Part shown: piece after piece, positions 4,960-21,295 of the stretch
Layout: each line of letters starts with the position of its first letter
How positions within the stretch are numbered: position 1 is the first letter of the stretch
DNA from: a virus
Lineage: Duplodnaviria > Heunggongvirae > Uroviricota > Caudoviricetes
DNA length: 64,000 nucleotides
IMG/VR virus record: IMGVR_UViG_3300028805_000039
Span: 127,852-191,851 of that record
Direction: 5' to 3' (one strand)
The notes under the pieces: model-generated
What the model was told of the DNA's origin: nothing
The model's database searches: none
What the model saw: the letters and a program-made list of their open reading frames with translations, nothing else
Program-made: the position numbers and the translations under genes

Positions 4960-5070
4960 GTCAAGAGGACGAGCGATAATCCGCCAGCCGTAGGGCAATA
5001 GCCAACAAGCGATACAGCGTGAGAAATCAACCGACAAAATTTTCAAAGAAATTTGAAAATCCTCTTGACA
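4960..5070 (+). ncRNA. promoter-driven small RNA unit; 5' end (gtcaagagg) pairs with its 3' end (cctcttgac), which is also the -35 of the next promoter
   Basis: aattgtcaagagg ... tttcaaagaaatttgaaa ... cctcttgacaa; no ORF. Confidence 0.4.
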
Positions 5071-5249
5071 AGACCACAAATCTGTGGTACAATAAAGATG
5101 TTGATAGGGAAGAGCCGAGCAAGGACGCAATTAGGACGGTGCGCGCGTGAAAAGCTACTGCCTATGGCTCAATAAAAAAAATAAAAATATTTCCTAAACC
5201 CTATTGACAAATCCACAGATTTGTGGTATAATAAATATAGTTGAAAGGG

Positions 5250-5830
5250 AGATGGAGAAGGGCGAGGTCACGCCGCCATCATAAAAAAATCCCAATGTGA
5301 GCGCTTTGCGGGAAAACCCTTTTGACATAAATGTAAGTGTAAGGATGATAAAGACCTGTGTACACCCCAACACAAGTTGGGCCGAGGCACAAAAACTACT
5401 GGCACGAGTGTACATTAAGTGCGTAGCCGAGAGTGGTTAGGGGCTACACTAATAATTATGCCATCTACCCATCTGCGTTGGGTAGTGAGGGGGACGCAGA
5501 CCCCAAAAAGTGAGCAACTACTTTAATGAGAGTCGCTGGACACCTCGCCCATTGAGGAGGGAAGTGCTGGTAGGTTCCCACCATAACACCAGACGCCAGA
5601 ACGTAAGGGCATACGGAATGGCAACAATTGTGGGATATTTATTTGTAGGTACTGAGAAAAACCTTCCGCAGTTTTAGACTATTATAAGTTCTGCGTAAAT
5701 AAAAACTTGCATGTAATTTTTATAAAATGGGTAAAGGCGTTGAGCGTGTATGTCTACCCCATTAAAAACGCTACAAAGGGTTTTACGGCAGGAGACCTAT
5801 ATAGGGGTGAGAAACCTATTCCCCTAATTT
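5250..5830 (+). ncRNA. about 0.55-kb GC-rich non-coding transcript region between the promoter (5204-5240) and the tRNA-Lys
   Basis: no ORFs; many hairpins; ends at the tRNA 5' end. Confidence 0.25.
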
Positions 5831-5834
5831 ATAA

Positions 5835-5909
5835 GCGCGTGTAACTCAGTGGTAGAGTAATCGCCTTTTAAGCGATAAGTCGCGGGTTCAAGCCCCGCCA
5901 TGCGCACCA
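5835..5909 (+). tRNA. tRNA-Lys(TTT)
   Basis: acceptor gcgcgtg/catgcgc (one G.U); anticodon stem atcgc/gcgat with loop cttttaa; T-arm gcgggttcaagccccgc; CCA. Confidence 0.8.
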
Positions 5910-6093
5910 ATACTTTTCCTTTCTCTCTTTTCTTTCTCTTTTGGTAATTCCTACTTTTATAGGTAGGAATTACGCCCGGGCGCAAAAATAATTTTTAAAA
6001 AAGTATTGACTTTTCACAAAAAAAGAGTATAATAATAAGTGTCAAGAGGAAAAATATAATCTAAAAAAATATTATAATAAAAGGTGATAAAAA

Positions 6094-6378
6094 ATGAATA
6101 TTATTGGTGGAATTTGGCTTATGACGACAGTTTTGGCTTTCTCTTTATTTGTTTCTGTATATTTTACAGCAAGAGAGAAATTCAAAAATAGACATCCAAC
6201 AGCAAAAATAGAAAAAAGTCTACTCGGAGAAAAAATCTATGGATATGTAATGGGTTTTGTTATTATAACTATACCAATTTTTCATTTTCTTACTTTATTC
6301 ATTTTAGCTACTCAGTATGATGATATTGTAGAAAGCACGATTTCCAAAATAGAAAATAAAATTATTTCAGAGGAATAA
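6094..6378 (+). CDS. membrane protein (94 aa, 2-3 TM segments)
   Basis: ORF track; hydrophobic segments; followed by the terminator at 6381-6410. Confidence 0.55.
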   Translation: MNIIGGIWLMTTVLAFSLFVSVYFTAREKFKNRHPTAKIEKSLLGEKIYGYVMGFVIITIPIFHFLTLFILATQYDDIVESTISKIENKIISEE

Positions 6379-6380
6379 GG

Positions 6381-6410
6381 ACTATTTTATTAGTCCTTAT
6401 TCTTTTTTAT
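6381..6410 (+). terminator. rho-independent terminator
   Basis: ggactattttattagtcc followed by a T-rich run. Confidence 0.7.
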
Positions 6411-6412
6411 TT

Positions 6413-6470
6413 GAAAATTTTAAAAAAATATTATATAATTATTATAGAAAATTAAAGAAAAGGAATTGAT
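6413..6470 (+). promoter_or_regulatory. late-type AT-rich promoter (TTGAAA-17-TATAAT) located inside the early module
   Basis: tatttgaaaattttaaaaaaatattatataat, identical to the module-2 promoters. Confidence 0.55.
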
Positions 6471-6475
6471 AAAAA

Positions 6476-6727
6476 ATGATTATGACTATTATTGACCAGA
6501 AGAAAGAATTTAATGCTCACATTGATAATCTTGTGGCAAAGTGCCCGGGCGACAAGACTAAGGCTGAACTTTTTCACGAGTTTATGGCTGATGGAATGTT
6601 CAATTGCTCTGTTGATGAGAACTATTTTTATGAATTTACTCTTGCTTTTGAAGAGTTTCTGTATTTTACTTATCGTATGGATGCCGCAAATTTTAAATAT
6701 TTTGATTTGAATAGATTTTACTTCTAA
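6476..6727 (+). CDS. hypothetical protein (83 aa)
   Basis: ORF track. Confidence 0.5.
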   Translation: MIMTIIDQKKEFNAHIDNLVAKCPGDKTKAELFHEFMADGMFNCSVDENYFYEFTLAFEEFLYFTYRMDAANFKYFDLNRFYF

Positions 6728-6784
6728 AAAGACTTGACAGATACCTTTCAGTATGCTATACTATAATTGTCAGGAGGGATATTG

Positions 6785-7045
6785 ATGGAATTAAAAGAAA
6801 TGATTGAAAAACTTACTAATGCGCTTGACAAAGAAAGCGATTATTGGTGTAATTTTGCGGTAGCGAATACCACCAATCCGGATAAAATGATGTATGGTGC
6901 GGCTGTTGGCCGAGGAGCAACATATAGTGAGGTTGCAATGCTGCTTAAATTTATCCTTAATAATGATACCGATAAATTTGAAGATTTTCTGACTTGTTAT
7001 AATGATATTAAAGAAAAATATCAGAAAATAAATGAAGGGAGATAA
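6785..7045 (+). CDS. hypothetical protein
   Basis: ORF track 6767..7045, start refined to MELKEM behind a gaggga RBS. Confidence 0.5.
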   Translation: MELKEMIEKLTNALDKESDYWCNFAVANTTNPDKMMYGAAVGRGATYSEVAMLLKFILNNDTDKFEDFLTCYNDIKEKYQKINEGR

Positions 7046-7049
7046 TAAA

Positions 7050-7379
7050 ATGGATATTAGAAATGTGCCTGCGGAAGCGGCAAACTATGAATTCGTTGTG
7101 GTGATTCCTAATGCTGACCATTACACTTTCCTCGGGATGTATGCAGATTGGCACGAAGCAGAAAAGGTAGCTCTTGAATACGGCGGGATTGTAATTCACA
7201 ATGTACGTATTCATGGATACCAGCCGCCCAAACCTAAAAAGAAGCATTATGTTTTTAGCGGAGTATGGTCTTGGGATTGCTGGGCTACTAATGAAGAAGA
7301 AGCCCGCAAACAGTTCGATGATGATTTTGTGTATGTTGATCTTGACCTTGACCACATCGAAATTGAGGTAGATGAATAA
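7050..7379 (+). CDS. hypothetical protein
   Basis: ORF track 7032..7379, start refined to MDIRNV behind a gaaggga RBS. Confidence 0.55.
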   Translation: MDIRNVPAEAANYEFVVVIPNADHYTFLGMYADWHEAEKVALEYGGIVIHNVRIHGYQPPKPKKKHYVFSGVWSWDCWATNEEEARKQFDDDFVYVDLDLDHIEIEVDE

Positions 7380-7387
7380 TTTACCTC

Positions 7388-7478
7388 AGTTGCCCGGGCG
7401 CGCGTTTATAAAAAGTTCATAATTTTTTGGCAAATATCTATTGACATTCATCCCACTATCTGCTATACTATAATTGTT
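7388..7478 (+). promoter_or_regulatory. early cassette: GCCCGGGC hairpin, A/T element, TTGACA (7441-7446) -17- TATACT (7464-7469), leader aattgttccaagagg
   Basis: one of roughly 50 near-identical cassettes in module 1. Confidence 0.7.
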
Positions 7479-7511
7479 CCAAGAGGAAAACAAAAAAAGG
7501 AGAATAAAATA

Positions 7512-7742
7512 ATGAATACGCCTGACTTTAATTTACGACGCCCAGCTATTTTTTCTGAAGACGAAAAAGCTTTGCTTAAAGAAGTAACTACAAAAGTTGA
7601 AAAAGCTTGTATAAATTGTAAAGATTGTGATTGGTGTATTTTCACTAAATTTTGTAGGCAAGTAAGTCTTAATGAAGATACTACAAGCCCCGGTGAACTT
7701 CTTACAGAGATATTTTCTATGCTTGGAGTTGATTTTAATTAA
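7512..7742 (+). CDS. hypothetical Cys-containing protein (76 aa)
   Basis: ORF track; aaaaggag RBS. Confidence 0.5.
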   Translation: MNTPDFNLRRPAIFSEDEKALLKEVTTKVEKACINCKDCDWCIFTKFCRQVSLNEDTTSPGELLTEIFSMLGVDFN

Positions 7743-7851
7743 TTCCAAGCGCCCGGGCGATTTGTTAAATAAATAACTATTAAAAAAGTCTTGACATTTG
7801 CGCGCCTATCTGCTATACTATAATTGTTCCAAGAGGAAAGGAGAAAATAAA

Positions 7852-8061
7852 ATGAATAGAATGAACTATAAGGAAGTTTGTGTTTCTCTCCAGTGCCCTT
7901 TCTGCGGCAGAGGGCACGAGGTTGAAGTCAATGAAATGGACTATCTTGATTGGAAAGATGGCACTCTCGCGCAGGACGCTTTCCCATATCTTTCAGCTAC
8001 TGAGCGTGAGCAGTTGATTAGTCAGTTGTGCCCTACTTGCCAGCACAAATTTTTTGATTAA
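7852..8061 (+). CDS. zinc-ribbon protein (CPFCG...CPTCQ)
   Basis: two CxxC pairs; start refined from track ORF 7798..8061. Confidence 0.55.
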   Translation: MNRMNYKEVCVSLQCPFCGRGHEVEVNEMDYLDWKDGTLAQDAFPYLSATEREQLISQLCPTCQHKFFD

Positions 8062-8073
8062 GGAGGAATAAAA

Positions 8074-8355
8074 ATGAAAGCAACTGGAATTGTGCGACGT
8101 GTGGATGACCTTGGTCGTATCGTTATCCCTAAAGAGATTCGGCGTACTCTCCACATTAAAGAAGGCGACCCCCTTGAAATCTATGTTGATGACAACATGG
8201 TGTGCTTTAGGAACTATAAGTATCAGGCGGTTGAAGATGCTTGTAAACAAGTTCTTGCCGCTTCCGCTGAATTAGTTAATCCTGAACAGTGTAACGCTAT
8301 TGATGCACACCTTAACGCCATCCGTAAACTGGTATTTGAGTTAGCCGAGAGTTAA
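8074..8355 (+). CDS. AbrB/SpoVT-family (swapped-hairpin) DNA-binding protein
   Basis: N-terminal GIVRRVDDLGRIVIPKEIRRTLHIKEGDPLEIYVDD closely resembles the AbrB N-domain. Confidence 0.7.
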   Translation: MKATGIVRRVDDLGRIVIPKEIRRTLHIKEGDPLEIYVDDNMVCFRNYKYQAVEDACKQVLAASAELVNPEQCNAIDAHLNAIRKLVFELAES

Positions 8356-8360
8356 TCTTG

Positions 8361-8450
8361 GCTAACCGCCCGGGCGGATTGTTAAATAAATAATTATTAA
8401 AAAAGTCTTGACATTTAACTCCTTATCTGCTATACTATAATTGTTCCAAG
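8361..8450 (+). promoter_or_regulatory. early cassette: ccgcccgggcgg hairpin, gattgttaaataaataa, TTGACA (8408-8413) -17- TATACT (8431-8436)
   Basis: direct read of the sequence. Confidence 0.7.
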
Positions 8451-8478
8451 GGAAGAATAAAAAAAGGAGATAAAAAAA

Positions 8479-8784
8479 ATGAAAGTACACATTGAACATT
8501 TTGCCACTTCTTACAGCATCACTTTCCACGGCACTATCAGTTATGATGTTGAGAGCTTTAGTTCTCTTGATGACGCTCTTGCTTTTGCTGAGGAAGAGAT
8601 TGATGTACGTCAGCAGGCTACTTCTGCTACTATCTGGGATAGCAATACTGGTGAGGTCTATGCTACTTGCTCTTGGGATGATGAATCTGTCCCTGAAGAG
8701 GACTATGGAGCATGGGAAGATTGGGATTATAATGAGGATGAGGGTTTTGACCCCTATGCTGGTGAATATACTTGGGATTGCTGA
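8479..8784 (+). CDS. acidic hypothetical protein (101 aa)
   Basis: ORF track. Confidence 0.55.
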   Translation: MKVHIEHFATSYSITFHGTISYDVESFSSLDDALAFAEEEIDVRQQATSATIWDSNTGEVYATCSWDDESVPEEDYGAWEDWDYNEDEGFDPYAGEYTWDC

Positions 8785-8978
8785 AAAGTAGTCCCAACTT
8801 TTTTTGTATTCCCAGAGAATTCCAGAACGCCCGGGCGAAAAGATTGTTAGAAAAATAACTTTCTCATCATTGAAAAATAATCTTGACAAATTCGATTAGG
8901 TGTGTTATTATAATAATGCCAAGAGGAAAGAACCACTTGACAGAAAACAAAAAAATTTATAAAGGAGTAAAAAAATTA

Positions 8979-9116
8979 TGATGATGGTGTTTGGTGTGTG
9001 CGATAATGCTGTTGATGCTTACCGTATGATGGAGTATGCGATGGAGCTGATTGCCGCGTATGGTGGCGGCATTTATGATGACGATGATGATGACGATTGG
9101 AGATGCGGCACCTGAG
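8979..9116 (+). CDS. small acidic protein (45 aa) with a poly-Asp tail
   Basis: RBS aaaggag then ATG; ...GGGIYDDDDDDDW. Confidence 0.35.
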
Positions 9117-9259
9117 TCTGACGCGTGGCAAATTACCTCAAAAACTTGAGGTAATTTGCCCGGGCGGATTGTTAAAGAAATAACTTACAAAAAAGGTATT
9201 GACTAATACTGTATAATGTGTTATTATAATAATGCCAAGAGGAAAGGAGAACATGAGAA

Positions 9260-9460
9260 ATGATTGAAAGAATTACTGGCTATCACATTCATAATGATAC
9301 TAATAAAGCATGGAATATTATTGATAATGAAATTAGTTGCGTTACAAACGATATTTATATTGTAGGACAAAACTTATCTACACTCGGAGAAATCCCTGCC
9401 GATATACAATTAAGATTAAAAAATTTGATTAGAACAGCGGAGAAAGTTCTTGATAAGTAA
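9260..9460 (+). CDS. hypothetical protein (66 aa)
   Basis: ORF track. Confidence 0.45.
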   Translation: MIERITGYHIHNDTNKAWNIIDNEISCVTNDIYIVGQNLSTLGEIPADIQLRLKNLIRTAEKVLDK

Positions 9461-9475
9461 AAGGAGATAAAAAAA

Positions 9476-9655
9476 ATGGATTATGTGTACTTAATCTGGG
9501 AAGACGTTGACGATTGGCCCGAAGATGGCGGCGGCACTTATCTTGAAGCTATCTTTGCTAATAAAGAAGATGCTGATAAAGAATGTGAAAGGCTCAATAA
9601 AAATCGTCCTACTAAAGAGACCAGTTATTTTGTAGATAAAGGAGTTGTAAGATAA
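9476..9655 (+). CDS. hypothetical protein (59 aa)
   Basis: aaaggag RBS; MDYVYLIWEDVDDWPEDGGG... Confidence 0.4.
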   Translation: MDYVYLIWEDVDDWPEDGGGTYLEAIFANKEDADKECERLNKNRPTKETSYFVDKGVVR

Positions 9656-9835
9656 TGGATTTAATTTGTCCTTATTGCATTAAGCCCCTTGAATGGGATA
9701 ACACAATAGATTATGATGTTGGCATTGATCATGCTGATACTAAGGACACAGGCCATTGTCCTAAGTGTAATAGGCACTTCCACTGGTATACACATTATAT
9801 ATTTTCTCATTATGAAGACTTGACAGAAGATTAAA
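9656..9835 (+). CDS. zinc-ribbon protein (59 aa)
   Basis: CPYC...CPKC; ATG overlaps the upstream stop. Confidence 0.4.
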
Positions 9836-9880
9836 TCTATGCTATAATAAATACAGAAAATAAGAAAGGAAGTAAAAAAA

Positions 9881-10090
9881 ATGATGATTGTAATTGGACT
9901 TTTGGTTGCGTATGCTATCAGTTTTCTCATTAATGCTGGCCTTGTGTGGCTGCTGTGCTGGGGCCTGAAAGCAGTTGGTATTACCACTATCTGTGGTTGG
10001 ACTGTGGCTTTTAGTTGGCCGCTGGTGTTGATTTTCACCGTTGCCTATGTAATTCTTCATAGTATCTTCGGTGGGCAGAGTAAGAAGTAA
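9881..10090 (+). CDS. small membrane protein
   Basis: ORF track; two hydrophobic helices. Confidence 0.5.
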   Translation: MMIVIGLLVAYAISFLINAGLVWLLCWGLKAVGITTICGWTVAFSWPLVLIFTVAYVILHSIFGGQSKK

Positions 10091-10102
10091 GGAGGAATAG
10101 TT

Positions 10103-10321
10103 ATGAAAGATAAGATTACTTATAATATTGTTGAGGAAATTGCTGTTCTCTCTGTCCGTGGCGGTTGGGCTCTTGAACTTAACCGCGTAGCATGGAATGG
10201 CGGCCCGCCTAAGTATGACATCCGCTCATGGAATGAAGACCACAGCCGAATGGGCAAAGGAGTTACTCTCAATGATAATGAGATGGAAGCCCTGCTCGAT
10301 GCGATGGCGGCAAGGAATTAA
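10103..10321 (+). CDS. hypothetical protein (72 aa)
   Basis: ORF track; ggagg RBS. Confidence 0.5.
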   Translation: MKDKITYNIVEEIAVLSVRGGWALELNRVAWNGGPPKYDIRSWNEDHSRMGKGVTLNDNEMEALLDAMAARN

Positions 10322-10431
10322 CCTTGCCCAATCGCCCGGGCAGATTGTTAAATAAATAACGATTAAAATGGTATTGACAAATTTAATTAAGTATGTTATT
10401 ATAATAGTACCAAAAGGGAAGGAGATAAAAA

Positions 10432-10671
10432 ATGCGTGACCCTGAAAGAATTGATGATTTTATGTACCATCTGGCCTATTTGTGGGAAAAGTATTGCCCT
10501 GACTGGCGATTTGCACAGTTGATGTCTAACTTTTTTTCCTATTACCGATGTGACCTCTTTTATAATGAAGAAGACCTATTTATGGAAAAGTTTGAATGCT
10601 ACATTTATAATGAAGTAGCAAACAAGCCTGACCCTGATGATTTTTGTTATTACGAACCGAAGGAGGATTAA
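10432..10671 (+). CDS. hypothetical protein (79 aa)
   Basis: ORF track. Confidence 0.5.
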   Translation: MRDPERIDDFMYHLAYLWEKYCPDWRFAQLMSNFFSYYRCDLFYNEEDLFMEKFECYIYNEVANKPDPDDFCYYEPKED

Positions 10672-10676
10672 AAAAA

Positions 10677-10898
10677 ATGGATTTCACAAATATGACTATG
10701 GAAGAACTCAATCAGATAAAAGCCGAAATTTATAATGAAATAGACCGCCGTGTTAAAGCCGAAGAACAAGAAGCAATTAAAGAATTTATAAAGGCTTTTA
10801 CTAAACTTAATGAAATGGCAGTAACCGTCACTTATGAAGATTGGGAAGATACCTATACTTTAATAAACCCTGAAAGATTCCACTTTACATCTCTTTAA
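10677..10898 (+). CDS. hypothetical protein
   Basis: track ORF 10644..10898, start refined to MDFTNM after an aggagg RBS. Confidence 0.5.
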   Translation: MDFTNMTMEELNQIKAEIYNEIDRRVKAEEQEAIKEFIKAFTKLNEMAVTVTYEDWEDTYTLINPERFHFTSL

Positions 10899-10996
10899 CT
10901 CTTTCAGGGTTAAAGCCCGGGCGCGCAAAAAGGGTATTGACAAATAAAATATTGTATGTTATAATGTAGCTACAAAAAGAAAAGGAGAATAAAAAA

Positions 10997-11197
10997 ATGG
11001 ACTGGAAAGAAAAAATTGCGGCAGGCATGAAGATGATTATGGAAGGTTGCGACCAAGAAGGACTTTGGTTTGGTTGTAAAGGATGTCCTTTTGGGTCTAT
11101 TTGTGACGCAATTCTCCGTGATGAAGAAAGTATTTATACTACTCCTGACCATTGGGAAGAAGAAGGAATTTTCAAAACACCTCTTGACACATTATAA
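10997..11197 (+). CDS. Cys-rich hypothetical protein (66 aa)
   Basis: ORF track. Confidence 0.5.
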   Translation: MDWKEKIAAGMKMIMEGCDQEGLWFGCKGCPFGSICDAILRDEESIYTTPDHWEEEGIFKTPLDTL

Positions 11198-11244
11198 ATT
11201 ATGTGCTATACTATAATCACAAAGAACGAAAGGGGAACTTAAAA

Positions 11245-11391
11245 ATGGAGAACTTTGATAAACGTATGAACAAAAAGACTGGCGAGGAACTCCAGCAGTA
11301 TCTCGCTTTCCGCCGCAAGGCTGGTCGTGTGCCCGCCAAAAAGGGCAAAGGGTCGTATGACCGCAAATCTTTTAAGAAAGAGGTGGCGTAG
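11245..11391 (+). CDS. basic small protein (48 aa) that terminates at TAG
   Basis: MENFDKRMNKKTGEEL...KKEVA then TAG; the next gene starts immediately. Confidence 0.45.
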   Translation: MENFDKRMNKKTGEELQQYLAFRRKAGRVPAKKGKGSYDRKSFKKEVA

Positions 11392-11392
11392 A

Positions 11393-11581
11393 ATGAAGAG
11401 CCCAAGATGGCAGATTGAATACCATTGGATAAACGATGAGGGCATCTGTGAGACTTATCGTTTTACTAAGATTTATACTAATCTGGATGAGGCTATCAAG
11501 TCTTATGAAGATTATGTAAGACTTGAAGGCGGTGGCTGGTATAGCCTGATTGAGATTACCGAAAGAGTAATTTCTATTTAA
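11393..11581 (+). CDS. hypothetical protein
   Basis: ATG right after the TAG stop; C-terminal part of track ORF 11327..11581. Confidence 0.45.
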   Translation: MKSPRWQIEYHWINDEGICETYRFTKIYTNLDEAIKSYEDYVRLEGGGWYSLIEITERVISI

Positions 11582-11596
11582 GAAGGAGGAAAAATT

Positions 11597-11887
11597 ATGA
11601 ATGAAATGATTAAACTTGTTGCTCTTTTAGAGCAGTCCCATGTCCCCTATGAAGTGCGTGACCATTGGTCTAATACCAAGCAGATTTGTTATCCGAACTG
11701 CGAAAATGTAGTTTGTGATGCCGTCTGCTTCCCCGGCTCCTATGGTTATTCAGATGGACTTCTGGAAATTATGGGGCTTGTAGATGAAGAGGAAGTTGGC
11801 GATACTGTTGAGGGCTGGCTTACTGCCGTTGAAGTCTTCCAGCGTATCTATAAGCATTACAGATACGAATTATATAGCATGATTTAA
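11597..11887 (+). CDS. hypothetical protein (96 aa)
   Basis: ORF track; aaggagg RBS. Confidence 0.55.
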   Translation: MNEMIKLVALLEQSHVPYEVRDHWSNTKQICYPNCENVVCDAVCFPGSYGYSDGLLEIMGLVDEEEVGDTVEGWLTAVEVFQRIYKHYRYELYSMI

Positions 11888-11981
11888 GCCCTACGGGGCT
11901 TAATCGCCCGGGCGAATTGTTAAATAAATAACTTTTGAAAAAGGTATTGACTTTTCCGCAAAAGAGAGTATAATAATAATT

Positions 11982-12076
11982 GTCAAGGGGAGAAAGAAAA
12001 CAACCTCTCTCAGGCGCGTAACCTGATGTAAGTAAAATCAAATCTCTTCAAAAAAATGGAAAAAACCCCTTGACAA
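11982..12076 (+). ncRNA. small RNA unit whose 5' (gtcaagggg) and 3' (ccccttgac, also the next -35) ends are complementary
   Basis: same architecture as 4960-5070. Confidence 0.4.
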
Positions 12077-12099
12077 ATCGCTCAACCTATGTTATAATA

Positions 12100-12190
12100 A
12101 GTATGTAAGATAAAGGAAAAGAAACGGAGCCTTGTCCTACTAAAAGGCTTTAGAATCTGGTAGGTAAATCTTTTGAAAGAGGTAGATACT
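12100..12190 (+). promoter_or_regulatory. conserved structured 5' leader of the family-X genes (ggagccttgtcctactaaaaggc...agaatctggtag...gaaagaggtagatactATG)
   Basis: near-identical leaders precede 12191, 18258 and 21521. Confidence 0.5.
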
Positions 12191-12595
12191 ATGTCTCGTA
12201 AGCTGTCCTATGTTTCCGCGATTGATTTCGCTCTGTCCATCCTGTCCCAGATTGATGCTGCTCAGGTGGCTATCCCCGCCGCCAAGGAAGAGGACACTCC
12301 GGTGTCTGTCGGTGAGGTTGTGGAGAAGCTGACCGCTCTCCGTGAGAAGCAGGCCGCTCGTTCGGCTACTAAGGCCGAGGGGCCGACCAAGGCCCAGCTT
12401 GAGCGTGCCGCCCTTGCCTCCCGCATCGGTGATGCTATGGAGCCGGGTGTGACCTACGGCAACGCCGAGATTGCCGCCCTCCTGCCGGAGCTGGCTGGTG
12501 CTACTCCCCAGCGTCTGTCTCCCCTCATGGCTCTGCTCGGTGAGCGGATTGTGACCTCTAAGGTCAAGGGCAAGAACTACTACACTCTTGCCTGA
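12191..12595 (+). CDS. family-X protein (paralog 1 of 4; C-terminus ...KGKNYYTLA)
   Basis: paralogs at 18258, 21521 and 41486 share the C-terminal block and leader; start refined to MSRKLSY. Confidence 0.6.
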   Translation: MSRKLSYVSAIDFALSILSQIDAAQVAIPAAKEEDTPVSVGEVVEKLTALREKQAARSATKAEGPTKAQLERAALASRIGDAMEPGVTYGNAEIAALLPELAGATPQRLSPLMALLGERIVTSKVKGKNYYTLA

Positions 12596-12852
12596 CCTAA
12601 AGGCTCCTAAGGGGTCGAGCCTTTCGGCCTCTTTCCAGTCAGTTTCTGGCTTTTCTGAGACAAAAAGGGCCACATAATAAAAGGTGGATAAAGGGCTTCG
12701 GCTCTCCACTATTTTTTCCTTGCGGACTGGGCCCTCTGCAAGGTTTTTTATTTATCTTCAATTAGCAAAGGCTAACCGCCCGGGCACTTTGTTAAAGAAA
12801 TAACTTTCAAAAACCTCTTGACTTTTTGCCAAAAGAGAGTATAATAATAATT

Positions 12853-12956
12853 GTCAAGGGGCAAGAGAACTGATAAAGTAGGGACAGCCCCAATGTGAGG
12901 ATTGCTGAATGACCTTGCTTGAAAAAATTTCAAAGAAATTTGAAATCCCCCTTGAC
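12853..12956 (+). ncRNA. small RNA unit with complementary ends and the tttcaaagaaatttgaaa palindrome
   Basis: gtcaagggg ... tttcaaagaaatttgaaatcccccttgacaag. Confidence 0.4.
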
Positions 12957-13015
12957 AAGAAAGAAAAAGCATGATATAATAAAATCACAAAGAAAGAAAA
13001 AAGGAGATAAAACAA

Positions 13016-14128
13016 ATGGCTACTTCTTACTCTGTCTGCAAAGACCGCAACATGATTTACTTCACCAATGATGAGGGCAAGGTGTGGAGTTTTGATGTGA
13101 ACACTGGCATTTTCCTTTCCCCCAAGGGCAATGCCGTCAAGTCTTTCCCGACTGGACTGGGCAGTTTCATTGACGGGCATGATACCAGAAATGATATTCC
13201 CGCTGTTCGTCTGATGGCCTTTATCCGCAATAACCCCTATAACTATGGCGTGCGTGATTATAAAAATTACCATATGCTGAGAAATCCCAGTTATTATGCG
13301 AAGTTGGCTGTCCTGTTTCAGGCTATTGACAAAATGGCAAGTCTGGGCTGTTCTCCTGACCGTTGGAACGCTACTGCTTCTAACCTGACTTTCATCAATG
13401 ACCATTTCAAGGCTTTTGCCAAGTGGTACAAGGATAATCAGTCTAATGAAGTTGAAGAATTTGTCCGCCGTTATGGTGTTGAAATGTATTGCCATGAACA
13501 CCACATTGACCCCGAACACCTGAGTGCAGATACTATTTCTTTCATTCAGTTTTATCTGATTAGAAATAATGCCAAATGGGCATCTCCGGAATATCTCCCC
13601 TATGTTATGTATTATCTGTCACGTGGTCTGGTTGATTTTGTTGGCGTAAATGTCGCAAGTAACCTGCTTACCAATTTCTTTGACTGGTGTGAAACCACTG
13701 GTATCAAGCCGCAGAAGTCCGACTTTTATCGGCAGTATCTTGATGTAAAGCATACTTATATTGCTAATAAAAAGCAGTATGACATGATGGCACTTGCCAA
13801 CAACTACGCAGAAAAGAAAAACGCTCTGCTGTTTGAGGATGATACTTTTAAGGTTATTATCCCCACCACTGTTGAGGAATTTCAGGCAGAGGGTGATGCA
13901 CAGCACAACTGTGTGTACAGTATGTATCTTGAAAAGTGCATTAAAAATACTACTCATGTAGTATTTGTTCGCCGCAAGGACGCACTTAATAAGAGTTACA
14001 TTACTTGCGAAGTTGACAAGCGGGGCAACATTGTCCAGTATCTCGGACAGTATAACAACTGGGTATCTGACCCTGACGCAATCGCTTTCAAAAAGCATTA
14101 CATGGAGTGGCTTGCCAATAACTGGTAA
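13016..14128 (+). CDS. PcfJ-like domain protein (370 aa)
   Basis: C-terminal ...EGDAQHNCVYSMYLEKC... resembles the PcfJ-family E-G-x-x-M-H-H-C-V core; largest early gene. Confidence 0.45.
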   Translation: MATSYSVCKDRNMIYFTNDEGKVWSFDVNTGIFLSPKGNAVKSFPTGLGSFIDGHDTRNDIPAVRLMAFIRNNPYNYGVRDYKNYHMLRNPSYYAKLAVLFQAIDKMASLGCSPDRWNATASNLTFINDHFKAFAKWYKDNQSNEVEEFVRRYGVEMYCHEHHIDPEHLSADTISFIQFYLIRNNAKWASPEYLPYVMYYLSRGLVDFVGVNVASNLLTNFFDWCETTGIKPQKSDFYRQYLDVKHTYIANKKQYDMMALANNYAEKKNALLFEDDTFKVIIPTTVEEFQAEGDAQHNCVYSMYLEKCIKNTTHVVFVRRKDALNKSYITCEVDKRGNIVQYLGQYNNWVSDPDAIAFKKHYMEWLANNW

Positions 14129-14430
14129 GCCCTCCCAAGGGGTAGGTAATTACCTACCCCTAACCGCCCGGGCGATTTGTTAAATAAATAACTTTTATTT
14201 TTCTATTGACTTTTCTAAAACATGTGCTATAATAATACTTGTAAATGAGATAACGCGGAGGGAGCCGCAAGGCGTTATGACCTCTATCTACATAAACCCT
14301 TTGCCCTTTGGGGAGAGCCTTTCGGGTTATAATAGAAAAATCTCCCCAAAATAAATTTATTTTATTCTCTTGACAAGGCACCAAGAGTATGTTATAATTA
14401 AAGTACAAAAGAGGAAAGGAAGTATAATCA

Positions 14431-14640: not shown

Positions 14641-14641
14641 A

Positions 14642-15770: not shown

Positions 15771-15959
15771 ATGACTACTTTGGAAAACAATTTTGATGAT
15801 AAAATGGTTCGTATGTTAATCATTAAAATGGGAGAACTTGCTAAAAATTATCAGATTCAATACGATGATAGAGACATGGAAGCTTATAAAAACAATGCAG
15901 AATTAAAGGCTCGCTGGAAAGTTTATGGTGAGCTTTTGGAAGAGTTAATGGAGGAATAA
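15771..15959 (+). CDS. hypothetical protein (62 aa)
   Basis: ORF track. Confidence 0.5.
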   Translation: MTTLENNFDDKMVRMLIIKMGELAKNYQIQYDDRDMEAYKNNAELKARWKVYGELLEELMEE

Positions 15960-15963
15960 AAAA

Positions 15964-16278: not shown

Positions 16279-16427
16279 GCCACGCCTTACCGCCCGGGCG
16301 CAAGATTGTTAAATAAATAACATTGAAAACCCTTCTTGACTTTTCCAAAATTTATGCTATACTATAATTGTTGATGCGGGAAAAGAAGTTAAACCCCATC
16401 ACAGAAAGGAATAAATATATGGAAAAA

Positions 16428-17129: not shown

Positions 17130-17160
17130 TAAAATCGCAGGGATTTTTCCCTGCGATTTT

Positions 17161-17215
17161 TTATTTGAAAATTTAAAAAAAATATTATAAAATATTTATA
17201 GAAAATAAAAAATAA
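17161..17215 (+). promoter_or_regulatory. late-type AT-rich promoter copy inside the early module
   Basis: ttatttgaaaatttaaaaaaaatattataaaatatttatagaaaataaaaaa. Confidence 0.45.
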
Positions 17216-17328
17216 ATACTGCCGAATAAATATTCACCGCCCGGGCAATCTTTTCTTAAAAATCCTATTGACAAATTCCAATAGAGGGTGTATAATAAAA
17301 GCACAAAAGGAAAAGGAGATAACACAAA

Positions 17329-17871
17329 ATGATTACTGCTAATGAACTGATGAAGATTGAAATGAACAGACAGGCCGCAATTGAAAAAAGAAAGATGGAG
17401 CGTGAGCAGTCTGCCGAAGCAACTAAGGCCGCAAGGCTTGAACGTGCGAAAATTAACTATGAGCAGGCAAAGGAAAATGTAGTTAAACTGTGCGAAGACC
17501 GCATTGGTACTTTGATTGAAGAAACCATCGAGCGGCAGGGCGTCAAAGATTTTTCTCTGCGGTTGCTGGTATCTCTTTTTACCGATGAGCTGGGTAATAG
17601 ACTTTTTAGGGTTGCAACTAAGGATGAGTTTGTTCCTGAGAAGACACAAAAGCGGAGCAGATTCAGAAATGACAACCGTGAATATTTTGTTATCAATAGC
17701 TCTGATTTTTGCTATAAGACCTTTCAGCAGTATTTAAGAAAACACGGCTTTCGAGTTGTACAAGAACGGAACAAAGAAACTGTCCCGTCGAGATGGTCTC
17801 TTAATCCTTCTATTATCTGTAATGTTATTACTATTACTTTGCTGGATTCCCCGACTAAGGATGAGAGTTAA
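17329..17871 (+). CDS. hypothetical protein (180 aa)
   Basis: ORF track; cassette promoter upstream. Confidence 0.55.
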   Translation: MITANELMKIEMNRQAAIEKRKMEREQSAEATKAARLERAKINYEQAKENVVKLCEDRIGTLIEETIERQGVKDFSLRLLVSLFTDELGNRLFRVATKDEFVPEKTQKRSRFRNDNREYFVINSSDFCYKTFQQYLRKHGFRVVQERNKETVPSRWSLNPSIICNVITITLLDSPTKDES

Positions 17872-17959
17872 TCTCTCATCCAATGCCCGGGCGGATTGTT
17901 AAATAAATAACTATTAAAAAAGGTATTGACTTTTTCGCAAAAAAGAGTATAATAATAAT

Positions 17960-18052
17960 TGTCAAGAGGGGCACACCGTTCGCGTGGCTCGCAAGAGTAA
18001 ACTCAAATAGAACAAGGAAACCACATTGAGGGTGTGAAAAACCCTCTTGACA
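17960..18052 (+). ncRNA. small RNA unit with complementary ends (gtcaagagggg / ccctcttgac)
   Basis: same architecture as 4960-5070. Confidence 0.4.
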
Positions 18053-18257
18053 AACTTTATAAAGTGTGATACAATGTAAGTGTAGTAAGGAAGAGGACAG
18101 AGGAATCAAGAACGAAATAAAAAAAATAAAATTTCCTCTTGACAAATCGCTCAACCTATGCTATAATAAGTATGTAAGGTAAAGGGAAACGAACGGAGCC
18201 TTGTCCTACTAAAAGGCGTAAGAATCTGGTAGGTAAAAAACGAAAGAGGTAGATACT

Positions 18258-18650
18258 ATGGCTAATTCTGTTGCTACTACTGACCGCAAGCCCACCAAGC
18301 GTGACCGCTTTAATCGGCTTTACACCATTGTGCAGGAGGGTTCTTACCACGATGCTGACGAGCTGATGGAGTTTATTGAGCACGAGCTGGAACTGCTCGA
18401 TAAGAAGAATACCGCTGAGCGTAAGCCCACCGCCAAGCAGGTCGCCAACGAGGGCTACAAGCAGAACATCCTTAACTGGATGGAGCCTGACCGCCTGTAC
18501 CTTGCGGCTGAGATTGCCAAGGGTGTGCCTGAGATTGTTGCCAATGGCGTGACTGCCGGCACTGTCACCGCTCTGCTGACCCAGCTTTATAAGGCGGGTA
18601 GCCTGACCCGCACTGAGGACAAGCGCAAGAACTATTACGCCCTCGCGTAA
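18258..18650 (+). CDS. family-X protein (paralog 2)
   Basis: C-terminus GVTAGTVTALLTQLYKAG..KRKNYYALA; conserved leader upstream. Confidence 0.6.
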   Translation: MANSVATTDRKPTKRDRFNRLYTIVQEGSYHDADELMEFIEHELELLDKKNTAERKPTAKQVANEGYKQNILNWMEPDRLYLAAEIAKGVPEIVANGVTAGTVTALLTQLYKAGSLTRTEDKRKNYYALA

Positions 18651-18691
18651 TCCCTACGGCTTCGGGGGTGAGCCAATCACCCCCATACTAT

Positions 18692-18767
18692 GCGGGCATA
18701 GCTCAGATGGAAGAGCACTTGACTTTTAATCAAGGGGTCGGGGGTTCAAATCCCCCTGCCCGCACCA
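18692..18767 (+). tRNA. tRNA-Lys(TTT), second copy with a different sequence
   Basis: acceptor gcgggca/tgcccgc; anticodon stem cttga/tcaag with loop cttttaa; T-arm gggggttcaaatccccc; CCA. Confidence 0.8.
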
Positions 18768-18922
18768 ATAACATCCTCTCTCCTTTCTTTCTCTCCTTTC
18801 TCTTTCGGGCTCTATCACTTTAATGTGGTAGAGTTCCCGCCCGGGCGATTTTTTATAAATAACTATTGACATTTTTAGAATTTATGTTATAATAAAATTA
18901 CCAAAAGAAAGGAAATAAAGTT

Positions 18923-19453
18923 ATGAAACAGAAAGAAATGAAGTGCATTCATCCGCGCAAGATGGTAAAAATTATGGAACGCTTTATTTATCTCGCAGGA
19001 AATGAGAAATGCGAAATTCATCGTGCGGATTCTTTTGGCACCTATGCCGCTTTTGAGGATTTTATTATTGATTATGACCCCAAAAAACTTCCTTATTGCC
19101 ATGATTACTTTACCAAAAATTTTCATAAGCGCAGTTCTATCTCTAAAGGATTCGCGGGTGTTACTATTTCTTTATTACACGAACTGGGGCATCGTAAAAC
19201 ATACGAACAATTTATCATAACTTACCCTAACTGGGATAGAATATTAGAAAGTTTGAAACTTCGTAAAAAATATCATTTCTTTGATGACCCTACTGAGCGT
19301 GATATAGAACAGGCGAATGAAGAATATTTTACTTGGCCTGAAGAAGCTATGGCTACTGAATGGGCTATAGAATGGTTGAATGACCCGGCTAATCGTAAAA
19401 TTGCAAAAAAATTTGAAAAAGAATTTTTTGCTTGTTTTGCCGCCGCTAAATAG
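18923..19453 (+). CDS. HExxH zinc-metallopeptidase-like protein; terminates at TAG
   Basis: ISLLHELGHRK motif; stop codon TAG at 19451-19453 sits inside the gccgct...agcggc terminator hairpin. Confidence 0.5.
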   Translation: MKQKEMKCIHPRKMVKIMERFIYLAGNEKCEIHRADSFGTYAAFEDFIIDYDPKKLPYCHDYFTKNFHKRSSISKGFAGVTISLLHELGHRKTYEQFIITYPNWDRILESLKLRKKYHFFDDPTERDIEQANEEYFTWPEEAMATEWAIEWLNDPANRKIAKKFEKEFFACFAAAK

Positions 19454-19549
19454 AGCGGCAAAACGCCCGGGCGCGCAAATTTACTATTGACAAGTAAAGT
19501 AATTAGTGTTATAATAATTGTGAAACCAAAAGGAAAGGAATTAAATAAA

Positions 19550-19780
19550 ATGAAGGAAAAAATTTTGGCTTGCCTTAATCGTTGGCCTGGAGCGCGCAAG
19601 CGTGAAGTTGCTACAGAAATTCATTGTCCTGTGAATGGAGCATTTCTTCATAACTTTAGCGAATTGGAAGATATTGGCTTTATTCACCGTGTCACAGTTA
19701 ATGACCCGGCTAATATGGAATTTTATGATAAATGGTACTTGACAGATGTTGGGTATCGTGCTATAATGAATGTAGATTAA
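19550..19780 (+). CDS. hypothetical protein
   Basis: start refined inside track ORF 19487..19780 (MKEKILACLN). Confidence 0.5.
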   Translation: MKEKILACLNRWPGARKREVATEIHCPVNGAFLHNFSELEDIGFIHRVTVNDPANMEFYDKWYLTDVGYRAIMNVD

Positions 19781-19797
19781 GGAAAGGAGTGTAGCAC

Positions 19798-20217
19798 ATG
19801 GCCAAGCCTGCTTTGAATGAAAAGACTATCGCGGATTACATGAAGCGTAATAAGTGTACCCGTGAAGATGCAATCGACCTTATCAAATACGATATTGCGG
19901 TTGAAGATGGCGAAGAAACCGAGTATGACCTGACCGAAGAACAGAAAAAGGTTGTACAGGATATGAACCGCAAGATTGACCACAAAAAGCCCACCACTAA
20001 GGTCAAGAGAGAACGCAAGCCGAATGAACTGAAAGAAGCCCTTGTCGCCGCTCTTGCAGATTATTTGGAAAATGTCTGTGAAATTGATATTGCTGAAAGC
20101 GGTCTTATTTACTGCGGAGATGTGGAAATTACCAATAAAAATCGTATGATTCACTTCACCTGCAAAGACAAGGAATTTGACCTGCAGCTCATTGAAAAGC
20201 GGCCCAAAAAGTCCTAA
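19798..20217 (+). CDS. hypothetical protein; paralog of 3109..3489
   Basis: shared LTEEQKKV..KRERKP block. Confidence 0.55.
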   Translation: MAKPALNEKTIADYMKRNKCTREDAIDLIKYDIAVEDGEETEYDLTEEQKKVVQDMNRKIDHKKPTTKVKRERKPNELKEALVAALADYLENVCEIDIAESGLIYCGDVEITNKNRMIHFTCKDKEFDLQLIEKRPKKS

Positions 20218-20730
20218 ACAAGCGAAACCCCGAACTTTTCGGGGCAATTCGCCCGGGCGGATTGTTAAATAAATAACTTATAAATAGATATTGACAACTA
20301 CCATCAATCCTGTTATAATATAATTGTTCCAAGGGAAAGCAAGAAAGTGACTGAGCCTGTTAAAGTCGCATCTGCGGGTGGGTGCGCAACACCTCTGAGT
20401 AGACCTTCAGCCAGTCGGTCAACCTTGTGGAAGCTTCTTACCAAGGAACATTCTCTGGGTAGGATTAGCTACCCTACTCATACAAATTTAATATAGGGAA
20501 GACAAAAGAAAGGAAATAGTAAAGCTATGGTTTTACTACTGCGGCTACCGCATCTTTAACACTTTTGCGGTAATATAAATTTTAAGACACTACCCGCCTA
20601 TTGGTACGGCGGGTGAGTGCCCGGGCGCGCATTTTTTTTTAGAAAAAACTATTGACAAACAACAAAAAGTCTGCTATAATAACAACTGTAAGGAACCAAG
20701 AGATAGATTAAAAAGAAAGGGGATAAAAAA

Positions 20731-20949
20731 ATGTTTCTTTGCGATGTACCCCGCGGGACTATTATATGTTTTGATGAGATACCCAATTATTATATCAAAG
20801 TCAAAAGATTAGATGGAGTATCTGGTGTTGTCAATTTAGAAACTGGTATATTCTATGAAGCAAAAGACTTGCGCGAGCAGGGTGTTGATCCTGATCATTT
20901 CTCTTATGTAGCGCCAAATTTTTATTCTTTTACAACAAATTGGCAGTAA
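20731..20949 (+). CDS. hypothetical protein (72 aa)
   Basis: ORF track. Confidence 0.5.
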   Translation: MFLCDVPRGTIICFDEIPNYYIKVKRLDGVSGVVNLETGIFYEAKDLREQGVDPDHFSYVAPNFYSFTTNWQ

Positions 20950-21295
20950 GTAAGCTGCCCGGGCGGATTGTTAAATAAATAACTTTTGAAAAAGGTATTG
21001 ACTTTTAGAAGAAAAAGAGTATAATAATAATTGTTAAGGGGAGGGGCTCCCAAAAAAACAAAATCGCCTGTGGGATTTAACTGGCGACCTGATAAAAAAA
21101 ATTCTTGAAACAAAGAAAAACCCCTTGACAAATTCCACTTAATGTGGTATAATGAATACAGTTAAGAGGGCGGTGGAAACCACGATACGCACCGTTTGTG
21201 CTGATGAAAGAAACAAGCCCGAAAAAAATTTCAAAGAAATTTGAAATCCCTCTTGACAAACACCACAAGCTGTGGTATAATAAGTATGTAAATAA

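Follow-up and report, generated by a model that had tools for sequence, protein, structure and literature searches.

A large phage from the rumen or gut poses, in its early region, the question of why transcripts from closely spaced promoters begin with a sequence complementary to the promoter that follows. We examined a window of 64,000 nucleotides (positions 127,852 to 191,851 of IMG/VR record IMGVR_UViG_3300028805_000039), in which strong promoters alternate with structured RNAs of about 100 nt whose 5′ bases are complementary to the following -35 box as transcribed into RNA. The phage is apparently a large phage of Bacillota, and these units would lie in its early region and be transcribed early in infection. 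The original prediction proposed seven such units and suggested coupling of tandem promoters at the RNA or cruciform level, a decoy or the precursor of a processed small RNA; the last two are possible.

Anatomy of the units

Units in the window open at a G about 6-8 nt past a consensus -10 element, and this G begins a helix of 9-12 bp with CCYCTTGAC, the -35 of the next promoter. The end of the helix coincides exactly with the opening G in units with differing flanks, and the opening G is the likely +1. The motif TTGTCAAGRGG or its complement, with at most one mismatch, has 22 matches against 1.8 expected. Six of the seven proposed units were confirmed (unit 1, U2, U3, U4, U5 and U5b in Table 1); all six have a near-consensus sigma-70-type promoter upstream, and their 3′ arms end in TTGAC, the -35 of a second promoter with 17 bp spacing. 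Folding of the RNAs, which had been suggested as a check, closed the terminal helix in all six (z = -4.4 to -5.4 relative to shuffled sequences), with a predicted pairing probability of about 0.9-1.0 for nucleotides 1-9. The remaining candidate, at 18080-18150, has only an internal 7-bp match that does not covary in the related locus L038, and its fold is no better than that of shuffled sequences (z = -0.3). Conversely, three clear units and one degenerate unit had been overlooked. TTGACA is found at the 3′ arm of all nine clear units of the window (helix of at least 9 bp), followed at 17 bp by a -10 element with at most one mismatch in eight of them and by GATGAT at 16 bp in the ninth (5240-5326). 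With -35 and -10 elements 16-18 bp apart, the 3′ arms are thus predicted to belong to promoters of the sigma-70/sigma-A type.

Table 1. Promoters, units and associated elements of the window; z-scores compare each fold with shuffled sequences.
Feature	Position	Strand	Terminal helix or score	Interior and downstream context
Consensus promoter TTGACA-17-TATAAT, starts unit 4286-4414	4250..4278	+		
Unit, newly recognised	4286..4414	+	12 bp, GTCAAGAGAGCA (4286-4297) with TGCTCTCTTGAC (4403-4414); z -4.4	exact direct repeat of 35 nt
P1-type promoter cassette TTGACT-16-TATAAT	4925..4952	+		GCCCGGGC and ATTGTTAAATAAATAAC upstream
Unit 1	4960..5069	+	GTCAAGAGGA (4960-4969) with TCCTCTTGAC (5060-5069); z -5.4	AU hairpin 5043-5062; 3′ arm is -35 of promoter 5065-5093
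Unit, newly recognised	5100..5208	+	GTTGATAGGG with CCCTATTGAC, two G.U pairs	3′ arm is -35 of promoter 5204-5232
Unit, newly recognised	5240..5326	+	GTTGAAAGGG with CCCTTTTGAC	TTGACA in 3′ arm, then weak -10; interior conserved in L037
P1-type promoter of U2	11947..11974	+		
Unit U2, conserved structured RNA family	11982..12074	+	9-bp closing helix; 112.9 bits	second helix; hairpin CAGG-CGCGTAA-CCTG; 3′ arm is -35 of promoter 12070-12098
P1-type promoter of U3	12818..12845	+		
Unit U3	12853..12956	+	GTCAAGGGG with CCCCTTGAC; z -4.7	AU hairpin 12928-12947; 3′ arm is -35 of promoter 12952-12980, which drives PcfJ-like ORF 13016-14128
Degenerate unit between promoters 14206 and 14370, newly recognised	14238..14378	+	5 + 4 bp with internal loop between; z -3.4	
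P1-type promoter of U4	17926..17953	+		
Unit U4	17961..18051	+	GTCAAGAGGG with CCCTCTTGAC; z -5.1	3′ arm is -35 of promoter 18047-18075
Slot between promoters 18047 and 18139 (fifth unit of the original prediction)	18082..18143	+	no terminal helix; z -0.3	
P1-type promoter of U5	20998..21025	+		
Unit U5, second conserved RNA family	21033..21129	+	GTTAAGGGG with CCCCTTGAC, one U.G pair; z -4.6	inner hairpin; loop-to-upstream pseudoknot pairing; hairpin TTCTT-GAAACA-AAGAA; 3′ arm is -35 of promoter 21125-21153
Unit U5b	21161..21257	+	GTTAAGAGGG with CCCTCTTGAC; z -4.8	AU hairpin 21228-21247; 3′ arm is -35 of promoter 21253-21281
tRNA-like element, slot between promoters 21253 and 21385	21296..21366	+		acceptor-like stem, T-arm, encoded CCA
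Last promoter of four-promoter array	21385..21413	+		upstream of ORF 21521-21898

The contiguous helix, 9-12 bp in the window, reaches at most 14 bp in the register analysis and 16-19 bp in a few relatives. Units are about 50-200 nt long (median 98). Their arms lie 84-103 bp apart in the window and 51-198 bp apart overall, with no helical phasing. The palindrome TTTCAAA-GAAA-TTTGAAA was located in three units, as originally described (5044-5061, 12929-12946 and 21229-21246), and the statement that the units lack ORFs holds in that no credible ORF lies inside them. Terminator prediction on the + strand of the window gave no intrinsic terminator at the 3′ arms, which are followed there by the AAxxx promoter spacer. 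The arrays stand upstream of few genes, namely a PcfJ-like ORF and three paralogs encoding small winged-helix proteins (12191-12595, 18258-18650 and 21521-21898). At other early promoters of the window, the predicted transcripts open with a local hairpin (GUUCC-AAGR-GGAA) or a polypurine SD-like leader.

Covariation of the arms in related phages

The same design was found in 36 IMG/VR loci and 23 MAG contigs. The pairing recurs and covaries across 68 non-identical units drawn from 38 contigs of phages and MAGs, so that the conservation in related genomes on which the original prediction depended is present, and in 60 of these units a -10 element follows the 3′ arm at 16-18 bp. At the variable pair of the helix the larger set contains 42 A-U, 24 G-C, 12 G.U and one A.C combination (Fisher 2e-10). 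The same bias is seen when units are chosen by their 5′ side alone (A/T 21, G/C 15, G.T 2, A/C 0; Fisher 9e-9) and in a fixed-register alignment (AU 19, GC 15, GU 2). With both G.U and A.C allowed, 19 G.U pairs but only 2 A.C pairs occur on the promoter-sense strand. Since the non-Watson-Crick pairs are almost all sense-strand G.U, the pairing acts in RNA and not in DNA, and the RNA-level complementarity that had been proposed is therefore under selection. The extended 3′ arm is a specific feature of promoters in pairs. Of 60 promoters with an upstream GTCAA-type start, 45 have CCTC or CCCC ahead of the -35, compared with 54 of 687 promoters without a tandem partner.

Conserved RNA families and turnover of unit interiors

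At least two of the unit interiors are themselves structured RNAs. Across phages with only 30-50% protein identity, the U2 and U5 families are 84-89% identical (the range for U2) or near-invariant. The 19 pairs of the U2 family are 99.3% paired, with compensatory changes at eight of them, a result matched by none of 500 shuffles, and a covariance-model search for U2 gave 11 matches above 100 bits. U2 is found ahead of different downstream partners in different phages, and in L073 it forms a stand-alone gene running from promoter to terminator, in which the arms AUCAAAAGG/CCUUUUGAU are altered yet complementary. The 3′ arm of this copy is not a -35 and is followed by an intrinsic terminator, making it the sole copy with a true terminator. 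The U5 family is likewise conserved, with covariation in both its hairpin and its pseudoknot pairings. That these two families are better conserved than the phage proteins points to important targets.

Other interiors turn over between close relatives. At 21171-21225 the window has an interior wholly different from those of L037 and L038, which also differ from each other. L038 in addition has a shortened U3 and has lost one whole unit from arm to arm, the deletion being flanked by direct repeats, as expected from homologous recombination. Because interiors are conserved in some units and fully replaced in others, the units are best regarded as modules, each a small RNA with a terminal helix superimposed on the promoter that follows.

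Searches with Rfam 15 at the gathering threshold matched none of the units and returned only tRNAs in and around them; nothing credible lay over a unit either in the window (E <= 1) or in 10 related loci (gathering score). Elsewhere in the window, at 52506, a ROOL match was found. None of the units was called as a tRNA by ARAGORN or the Rfam tRNA model, a T-arm with CCA being confined to 21296-21366. The unit RNAs are unknown to Rfam, and the phages form a widespread group with many uncatalogued RNAs. In these uncultured large rumen and gut Bacillota phages, with contigs of up to about 240 kb, the earliest and strongest promoters appear to serve small RNAs in addition to proteins.

Function of the units and comparison with known systems

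The complementarity might be a by-product, either of two independent consensuses (the initial transcribed sequence and the extended -35) or of shared ancestry among duplicated cassettes; the P1 cassette is common to many units, and the 5′ sequence TTGTCAAGAGGAAAGGAG also runs straight into ORFs in L019 and L036. This is hardly credible, as it is contradicted by the counts at the variable pair, by rare arm variants that are matched on both sides (TAGGG/CCCTA, AAGGG/CCCTT, AGAGAGCA/TGCTCTCT and the arms of the L073 gene) and by the specificity of the pyrimidine extension for promoters with an upstream partner. The cassette-like turnover, the arm-to-arm deletion and the small winged-helix proteins encoded directly downstream could instead suggest a DNA feature, whether cruciform arms, half-sites for a looping protein or recombination sites for cassette exchange, but we regard this as very improbable. 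A DNA duplex or protein site would not discriminate between sense-strand G.T and A.C; the strand-symmetric complementarity expected of a DNA palindrome is not observed (G.T 12 versus A.C 1 at the covarying position); loops of 50-200 nt disfavour the cruciforms originally suggested; the arm sequence changes on both sides, unlike a fixed protein site; inverted sites invert a segment rather than exchange it; and the direct repeats flanking the L038 deletion fit homologous recombination. Coupling of promoters, in which the 5′ end of the RNA from promoter n would tune promoter n+1 through pairing with the -35 DNA or through altered traversal by upstream polymerases, draws on the very regular overlap between 3′ arm and -35, the promoter looking functional in 60 of 68 units. 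It too is improbable, given that compensatory changes preserve the helix even at sites free of an overlapping promoter (the terminator in L073, a separate promoter 19 nt downstream in L067/L068, no -10 in L010/L016), that the -35 stays unmelted in open complexes and that the arms are separated by a wide, unphased range of distances.

A more serious alternative, although still unlikely, is that the units are structured spacers without a function of their own, about 100 bp being needed for independent occupancy of tandem promoters and the transcribed spacer being selected to collapse closed, thereby sparing the ribosome-binding site and avoiding RNases and Rho. The small number of genes downstream of the arrays, the outright replacement of the 21171-21225 interior, the shortening of U3 and the loss of an entire unit are all in keeping with spacers, whereas the conservation of U2 and U5, long unpaired stretches included, far exceeds that of the promoters' spacers and of the proteins, and neither the stand-alone gene nor the varied downstream partners of U2 are expected of a spacer. 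On balance, the anatomy of the units, their RNA-level covariation, the two conserved cargo families, the terminator-ended copy and the cassette-like turnover lead us to favour the view that the units are probably small structured non-coding RNAs lying between close host-type promoters, each closed by a helix whose 3′ strand is overlaid on the next -35.

In such RNA modules, transcription would begin with G at +1, followed by UCAAGRGG or a variant that G.U pairing can accommodate, and these nucleotides would pair with CCYCUUGAC at the 3′ side. In arrays this 3′ strand would coincide with positions -41 to -31 of the following promoter, giving the same bases two roles, the -35 box of promoter n+1 in DNA and the closing strand of RNA n once transcribed. 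Promoter function would fix TTGAC, with the 5′ arm keeping pace by changes that G.U pairing tolerates and with free covariation ahead of the -35. This dual use would constrain the co-evolution of promoters and transcript starts, and the initial transcribed sequence would mirror the -35 because the same bases serve both roles. The terminal helix may let each module fold independently within a longer read-through transcript and may remove the single-stranded 5′ end that RppH and RNase J1 need in Bacillota. The enclosed cargo would consist of distinct RNAs, some highly conserved (a pseudoknot, tRNA-like pieces) and some swapped between close relatives. A helix of 9-12 bp closing about 100 nt is modest, neighbouring units could mispair since their arms are shared, about a quarter of the sites chosen by their 5′ side have no 9-bp helix, and protection of the end leaves unexplained why nearly all arrays place the 3′ arm on the -35 rather than beside it. 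Stacked promoters with seemingly insulated transcript segments are a natural design of practical interest for synthetic biology and for expression in Gram-positive hosts.

Tandem strong early promoters are known from other lytic phages, such as T7 (A1-A3) and the host-takeover module of the Bacillus phage SPO1. Like these, the arrays are near-consensus clusters of host-polymerase promoters, spaced by about 100-130 bp at the presumed early end of the genome and serving small, presumably early genes; we know of no terminal helix between +1 and the next -35, nor of a conserved inter-promoter RNA, in arrays of the T7 or SPO1 type. Phages also deploy small structured RNAs against host systems, including pseudo-ToxI antitoxin mimics, RNA anti-CRISPRs and sets of tRNAs. 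The units resemble these in being short, structured, presumably highly expressed and phage-borne, with some cargo turning over fast, and tRNAs and tRNA-like pieces occur in the same arrays, but no similarity of the units to any of these RNAs was found and none matches Rfam. This raises the tentative possibility that the arrays are a platform for expression and exchange, in which a fixed frame of promoter and helix would deliver an RNA repertoire within minutes of infection and recombination would quickly swap RNAs serving host takeover or acting as decoys against RNA- or tRNA-directed defences. The repertoire concerned comprises pseudoknots, tRNA-like pieces and repeat-bearing RNAs. If true, such a platform would do with RNA what the 'host-takeover modules' of large lytic phages do with protein.

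Integron arrays with attC sites likewise frame interchangeable cargo in serial slots with conserved flanks, although the pairing of the units is selected in RNA, their arms are inverted around the cargo and no integrase was seen; unlike in integrons, turnover would fit homologous recombination between repeated promoters and arms. A retron ncRNA with a1/a2 terminal repeats was rejected, as the adjacent ORFs (the PcfJ-like and winged-helix ORFs 12191-12595, 13016-14128, 18258-18650 and 21521-21898) contain no reverse transcriptase domain. As in the processing stalks of rRNA precursors and the acceptor stems of tRNAs, paired 5′ and 3′ ends define an autonomous module in a longer transcript, and a tRNA-like element with an acceptor-like closing stem occupies one array slot. 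Typical RNase III stalks are longer than the unit helix, the unit arms are followed by neither CCA nor RNase P features, and RNase III sites of the T7 or SP82 type, with about two turns (some 20 bp) of double-stranded RNA, exceed the 9-12 bp of contiguous helix in the window. The B. subtilis RppH requires at least two unpaired 5′ nucleotides, and a paired 5′ end is expected to block both RppH and RNase J1 (PMC3997798). With a helix that starts at the likely +1, the units have the predicted structure of a 5′-terminal stem-loop mRNA stabilizer. They share with the stem-loop and polypurine 5′ stabilizers of Bacillota (the aprE leader, ermC and the early RNA of phage SP82) a transcript that would be made by the host sigma-A polymerase and be paired at its very 5′ end, and differ from them in that the helix is long-range and closes a whole RNA of 50-200 nt, its 3′ strand is the -35 of a promoter and it encloses conserved RNAs.

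Promoter arrays and units of the early region

The window carries 29 tRNA genes and one ROOL RNA and comes from a large phage whose near-identical relatives are found on 241-kb contigs of rumen-type metagenomes. Its early region (positions 1-26 kb) is dense in promoters: a scan of 3.6-23.5 kb detected 24 perfect TTGACA-N16-17-TATAAT sites and about 18 with one mismatch, all on the plus strand, and the Gram-positive TRTG -16 motif is present in many early-region promoters. Exact matches to the promoter plus start motif were found in GTDB genomes, on rumen and gut contigs of which most are binned as Bacillota, and a megablast of 4700-13000 against INPHARED returned no cultured-phage relatives.

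The motif on which the original prediction built its seven small RNA units is real, since it occurs 22 times against 1.8 expected. Reading of the sequence together with an in-register scan identified nine clear units and one degenerate unit, which lie between the closely spaced promoters of arrays. All nine clear units start at a G located 7-8 nt past the -10 hexamer, the expected +1 position. This G opens a terminal helix of 9-12 bp between a 5' and a 3' arm, the latter ending in TTGAC, which in every case lies within a TTGACA hexamer. A -10 element with at most one mismatch is found 17 bp after TTGACA in eight of the nine; in unit 5240-5326 the only candidate is a weak one, GATGAT, at 16 bp. 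Folding of the unit RNAs closes the terminal helix, with energies 4-5 sd below those of shuffled sequences. The proposed unit at 18080-18150 (z = -0.3) departs from this design and was dropped as a member, as was a weak covariance-model match at 4170-4254 that has only 6 bp, away from the transcript start. As no terminator is predicted at the 3' arms in the window, the suggestion that the transcripts end there is not supported.

Units and other features of the window
Feature	Positions	Remark
Clear unit	4286-4414	
Clear unit	4960-5069	
Clear unit	5100-5208	
Clear unit	5240-5326	
Clear unit	11982-12074	U2
Clear unit	12853-12956	U3
Clear unit	17961-18051	
Clear unit	21033-21129	U5
Clear unit	21161-21257	
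Degenerate unit	14238-14378	
Paralogous early protein	12191-12595	driven by promoter array
Paralogous early protein	18258-18650	driven by promoter array
Paralogous early protein	21521-21898	driven by promoter array
780-aa ORF	30884-33226	major-vault-protein shoulder and repeat domains; nearest relatives (~40% identity) are ORFs of 462-735 kb uncultured phages
ROOL RNA	52506-53129	292 bits
Palindrome array CGGTAAAATTTACCG	27441-27818	~33-nt spacing, both strands; conserved in related locus L038; looks like an iteron or origin

An AU palindrome is enriched beside the 3' arm, being present in 37 of 66 units compared with 13 +/- 3 in shuffles, and shifted complementary variants occur. It may be either an RNA hairpin or a DNA element, and its T-run followed by an A-run also resembles a promoter UP element. 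An exact 35-nt direct repeat, ACCGAATCTGGTTGAAATAACCCAGTAGTTAGAGA, is located inside unit 4286-4414 (4303-4337 and 4351-4385). In several downstream promoters the spacer has a CCACA-N3-4-TGTGG that abuts the -10 (5072-5088, 5211-5227, 21133-21148 and 21260-21276); because its TGTG is the -16 motif, a second promoter element would be paired within the upstream transcript, and a protein site could be the alternative to RNA pairing.

For the remaining early promoters, predicted 5' ends belong to two classes, one with a local hairpin, GUUCC-AAGR-GGAA, and one with unpaired, polypurine SD-like leaders. The 8-bp palindrome GCCCGGGC is present in 31 copies (0.14 expected), all in the early region (848-25351; for example 4880, 11906, 12778, 17885 and 20957), each about 40 nt upstream of a transcription unit's first promoter and usually with a hairpin before and ATTGTTAAATAAATAAC after it; it may serve as a regulatory site or mark a boundary. 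A second promoter class, TTGAAAattttaaaaaaatattaTATAATatttatagaaaa, is almost invariant and has at least 14 copies across 6411-60852, mostly beyond the early region (for example 33274, 36303, 45211 and 54495).

Covariation of the terminal helix and the molecule in which it forms

Searching with TATAATAATAATTGTCAAGRGG as the pattern yielded 36 IMG/VR loci and 23 MAG contigs, across which the variable pair of the unit helix covaries; the complementarity noted in the window is conserved in related genomes. When sites were chosen by their 5' side alone and the partner was taken as the first downstream TTGAC, the purine at helix position 7 was matched as A/T in 21 cases, G/C in 15, G.T in 2 and A/C in none (Fisher 9e-9). 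A fixed-register count gave AU 19, GC 15, GU 2 and other 2 at this position, and the helix stops after 11 bp. All sources together provided 87-90 non-identical sites, 66-68 of them with at least nine contiguous pairs, and position 7 was AT in 42, GC in 24, GT in 12 and AC in 1 (Fisher 2e-10). Rarer arms, too, are matched on both sides (TAGGG/CCCTA, AAGGG/CCCTT and AGAGAGCA/TGCTCTCT), and in one and the same slot the arms are GTTGATAGGG/CCCTATTGAC in the window and GTCAAGAGGG/CCCTCTTGAC in the related locus L037.

Complementary arms of this kind might act as a DNA duplex, a cruciform or a protein site, or in the transcript. A search that tolerated both kinds of mismatch found 19 G.U and 2 A.C, an asymmetry that fits none of the three DNA-level readings and argues for pairing in RNA of the promoter sense strand. 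The pyrimidine extension upstream of the -35 is no general promoter feature, since CCTC or CCCC is found there in 45 of 60 promoters that have a GTCAA-type start upstream and in 54 of 687 without a tandem partner.

Helices also exist without an overlapping promoter. Related locus L073 encodes the U2 RNA as a stand-alone gene, with a promoter, arms AUCAAAAGG/CCUUUUGAU that include three compensated pairs, and then a terminator (GAGGAT-GAATA-ATCCTC-T7); here the 3' arm has ceased to be a -35. L067 and L068 contain a unit with arms GUCAGAGGGAAG/CUUCCCUCUGAU, followed 19 nt downstream by a separate promoter. L010, L016 and L018 share a longer RNA (136-198 nt) that starts from the same promoter cassette and has a closing helix of 14-19 bp with no -10 after it (L010 10915-11050; L016 4307-4504, minus strand). 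The helix is therefore a property of the RNA; its overlap with a -35 is the usual case but not an obligatory one. Coupling between tandem promoters, the main idea of the original prediction, need not be invoked for any observation, and the promoter-less copies contradict the view that it is required.

Conserved families, cargo and turnover

U2 is 84-89% identical in several IMG/VR relatives whose proteins have only 26-55% identity to those of the window, and its flanking promoter spacers are unalignable. Eight distinct members define a structure of three helices and 19 pairs, 99.3% paired, with compensatory changes in 8 of the 19 pairs, a level that no shuffle reaches. With the U2 covariance model, 11 copies score more than 100 bits; the match ranked after them, at 42 bits, is to other units via the shared arms only. 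In a search for antisense targets of the units inside the window, the sole notable match was between 16 nt of U2 and 52283-52298; we took it as chance because it lies in a part of U2 that varies between homologues.

U5 shows almost no variation in L037 and L038 and recurs in L063, L065, L068 and L075. Alignment by eye indicates covariation in its hairpin (UCGCC/GGCGA, GUCGC/GCGAC, CCGC/GCGG), in a loop-to-upstream pairing (UCCCA/UGGGA, CCCCA/UGGGG, CCCAA/UUGGG) and in an AU hairpin (UUCUU/AAGAA, UUUCU/AGAAA). A pattern scan for U5 returned 11 loci, of which L075 is a true homologue; the other ten (L076-L085), eight of which were read, look like chance matches.

Some of the cargo contains tRNA-like T-arms (L066-L069 and window 21296-21366). 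The tRNA-like element at 21296-21366 occupies a unit slot between two promoters and comprises a 5-bp acceptor-like stem, a small hairpin, a T-arm (GGGGGG-TTCGATT-CCCCCC) and an encoded CCA; ARAGORN made no call, and the sole match was a weak one to the T-arm part of tmRNA. Another tRNA-like RNA, recognised by eye at 4453-4536 directly after promoter 4410, has GGAACGA paired with TCGTTCC around the T-arm GGCGG-TTCAAGT-CCCCC. Upstream of the ROOL RNA, at 52164-52363, a consensus promoter precedes an RNA that repeats the terminal-helix idea with unrelated arms, its initial 11 nt pairing with 52353-52363.

Comparison of genomes that are 80-90% identical reveals turnover of units. The interior of 21161-21257 is wholly different in the window, L037 and L038, with both promoters and both arms kept. 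L038 has lost one unit by deletion between two 5' arms, has an additional unit upstream of the 134-aa gene and has a shorter U3, and whole arrays have been swapped among paralogous downstream genes.

Downstream genes and a model for the units

Three paralogous proteins of 125-134 aa are encoded downstream of arrays of 2-4 promoters, each gene preceded by a conserved leader, GGAGCCTTGTCCTACTAAAAGGC..TCTGGTAGGTAAA. The proteins are modelled as a small winged-helix fold (pLDDT 86.6), to which the nearest solved folds, with weak E-values, are TubR, ArsR/SmtB, PadR and Zalpha. Pfam and PHROGs gave no function, none of 781 metagenome homologues is named, and a related-locus search with the 134-aa protein yielded no confirmed locus. 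A PcfJ-like ORF likewise has arrays in front of it, as do tRNA genes further along. A G+C-rich stretch (5330-5835, about 500 nt), located between the third unit and tRNA-Lys, has no convincing ORF; it is 87% identical in L038 and may represent a larger non-coding RNA.

The reading best supported by these sequence comparisons is that each unit would be a small RNA module whose terminal helix begins at +1, the 3' strand being superimposed, in arrays, on the next promoter. Because the promoter fixes TTGAC, the transcript start would be forced to GUCAA or one of its wobble variants, GUUAA and GUUGA, and bases -36 to -41 covary with +6 to +11. The helix may allow each module to fold independently in read-through transcripts, and may provide a fully paired triphosphate end resistant to B. 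subtilis RppH, which needs two or more unpaired nucleotides (PMC3997798), and to RNase J1.

Rfam contains no family for the units, as judged with gathering and E-value thresholds for the window and with the gathering score for ten related loci, and literature searches on the motif, on tandem promoters with a terminal stem and on phage early-region small RNAs found no description of the design. On this evidence the design appears to include at least two new conserved RNA families, U2 and U5, neither with an Rfam match. The dual use of the -35 as promoter element and helix strand is not described before, within the literature searched; the known kinds involved are phage small RNAs and 5'-paired leaders.
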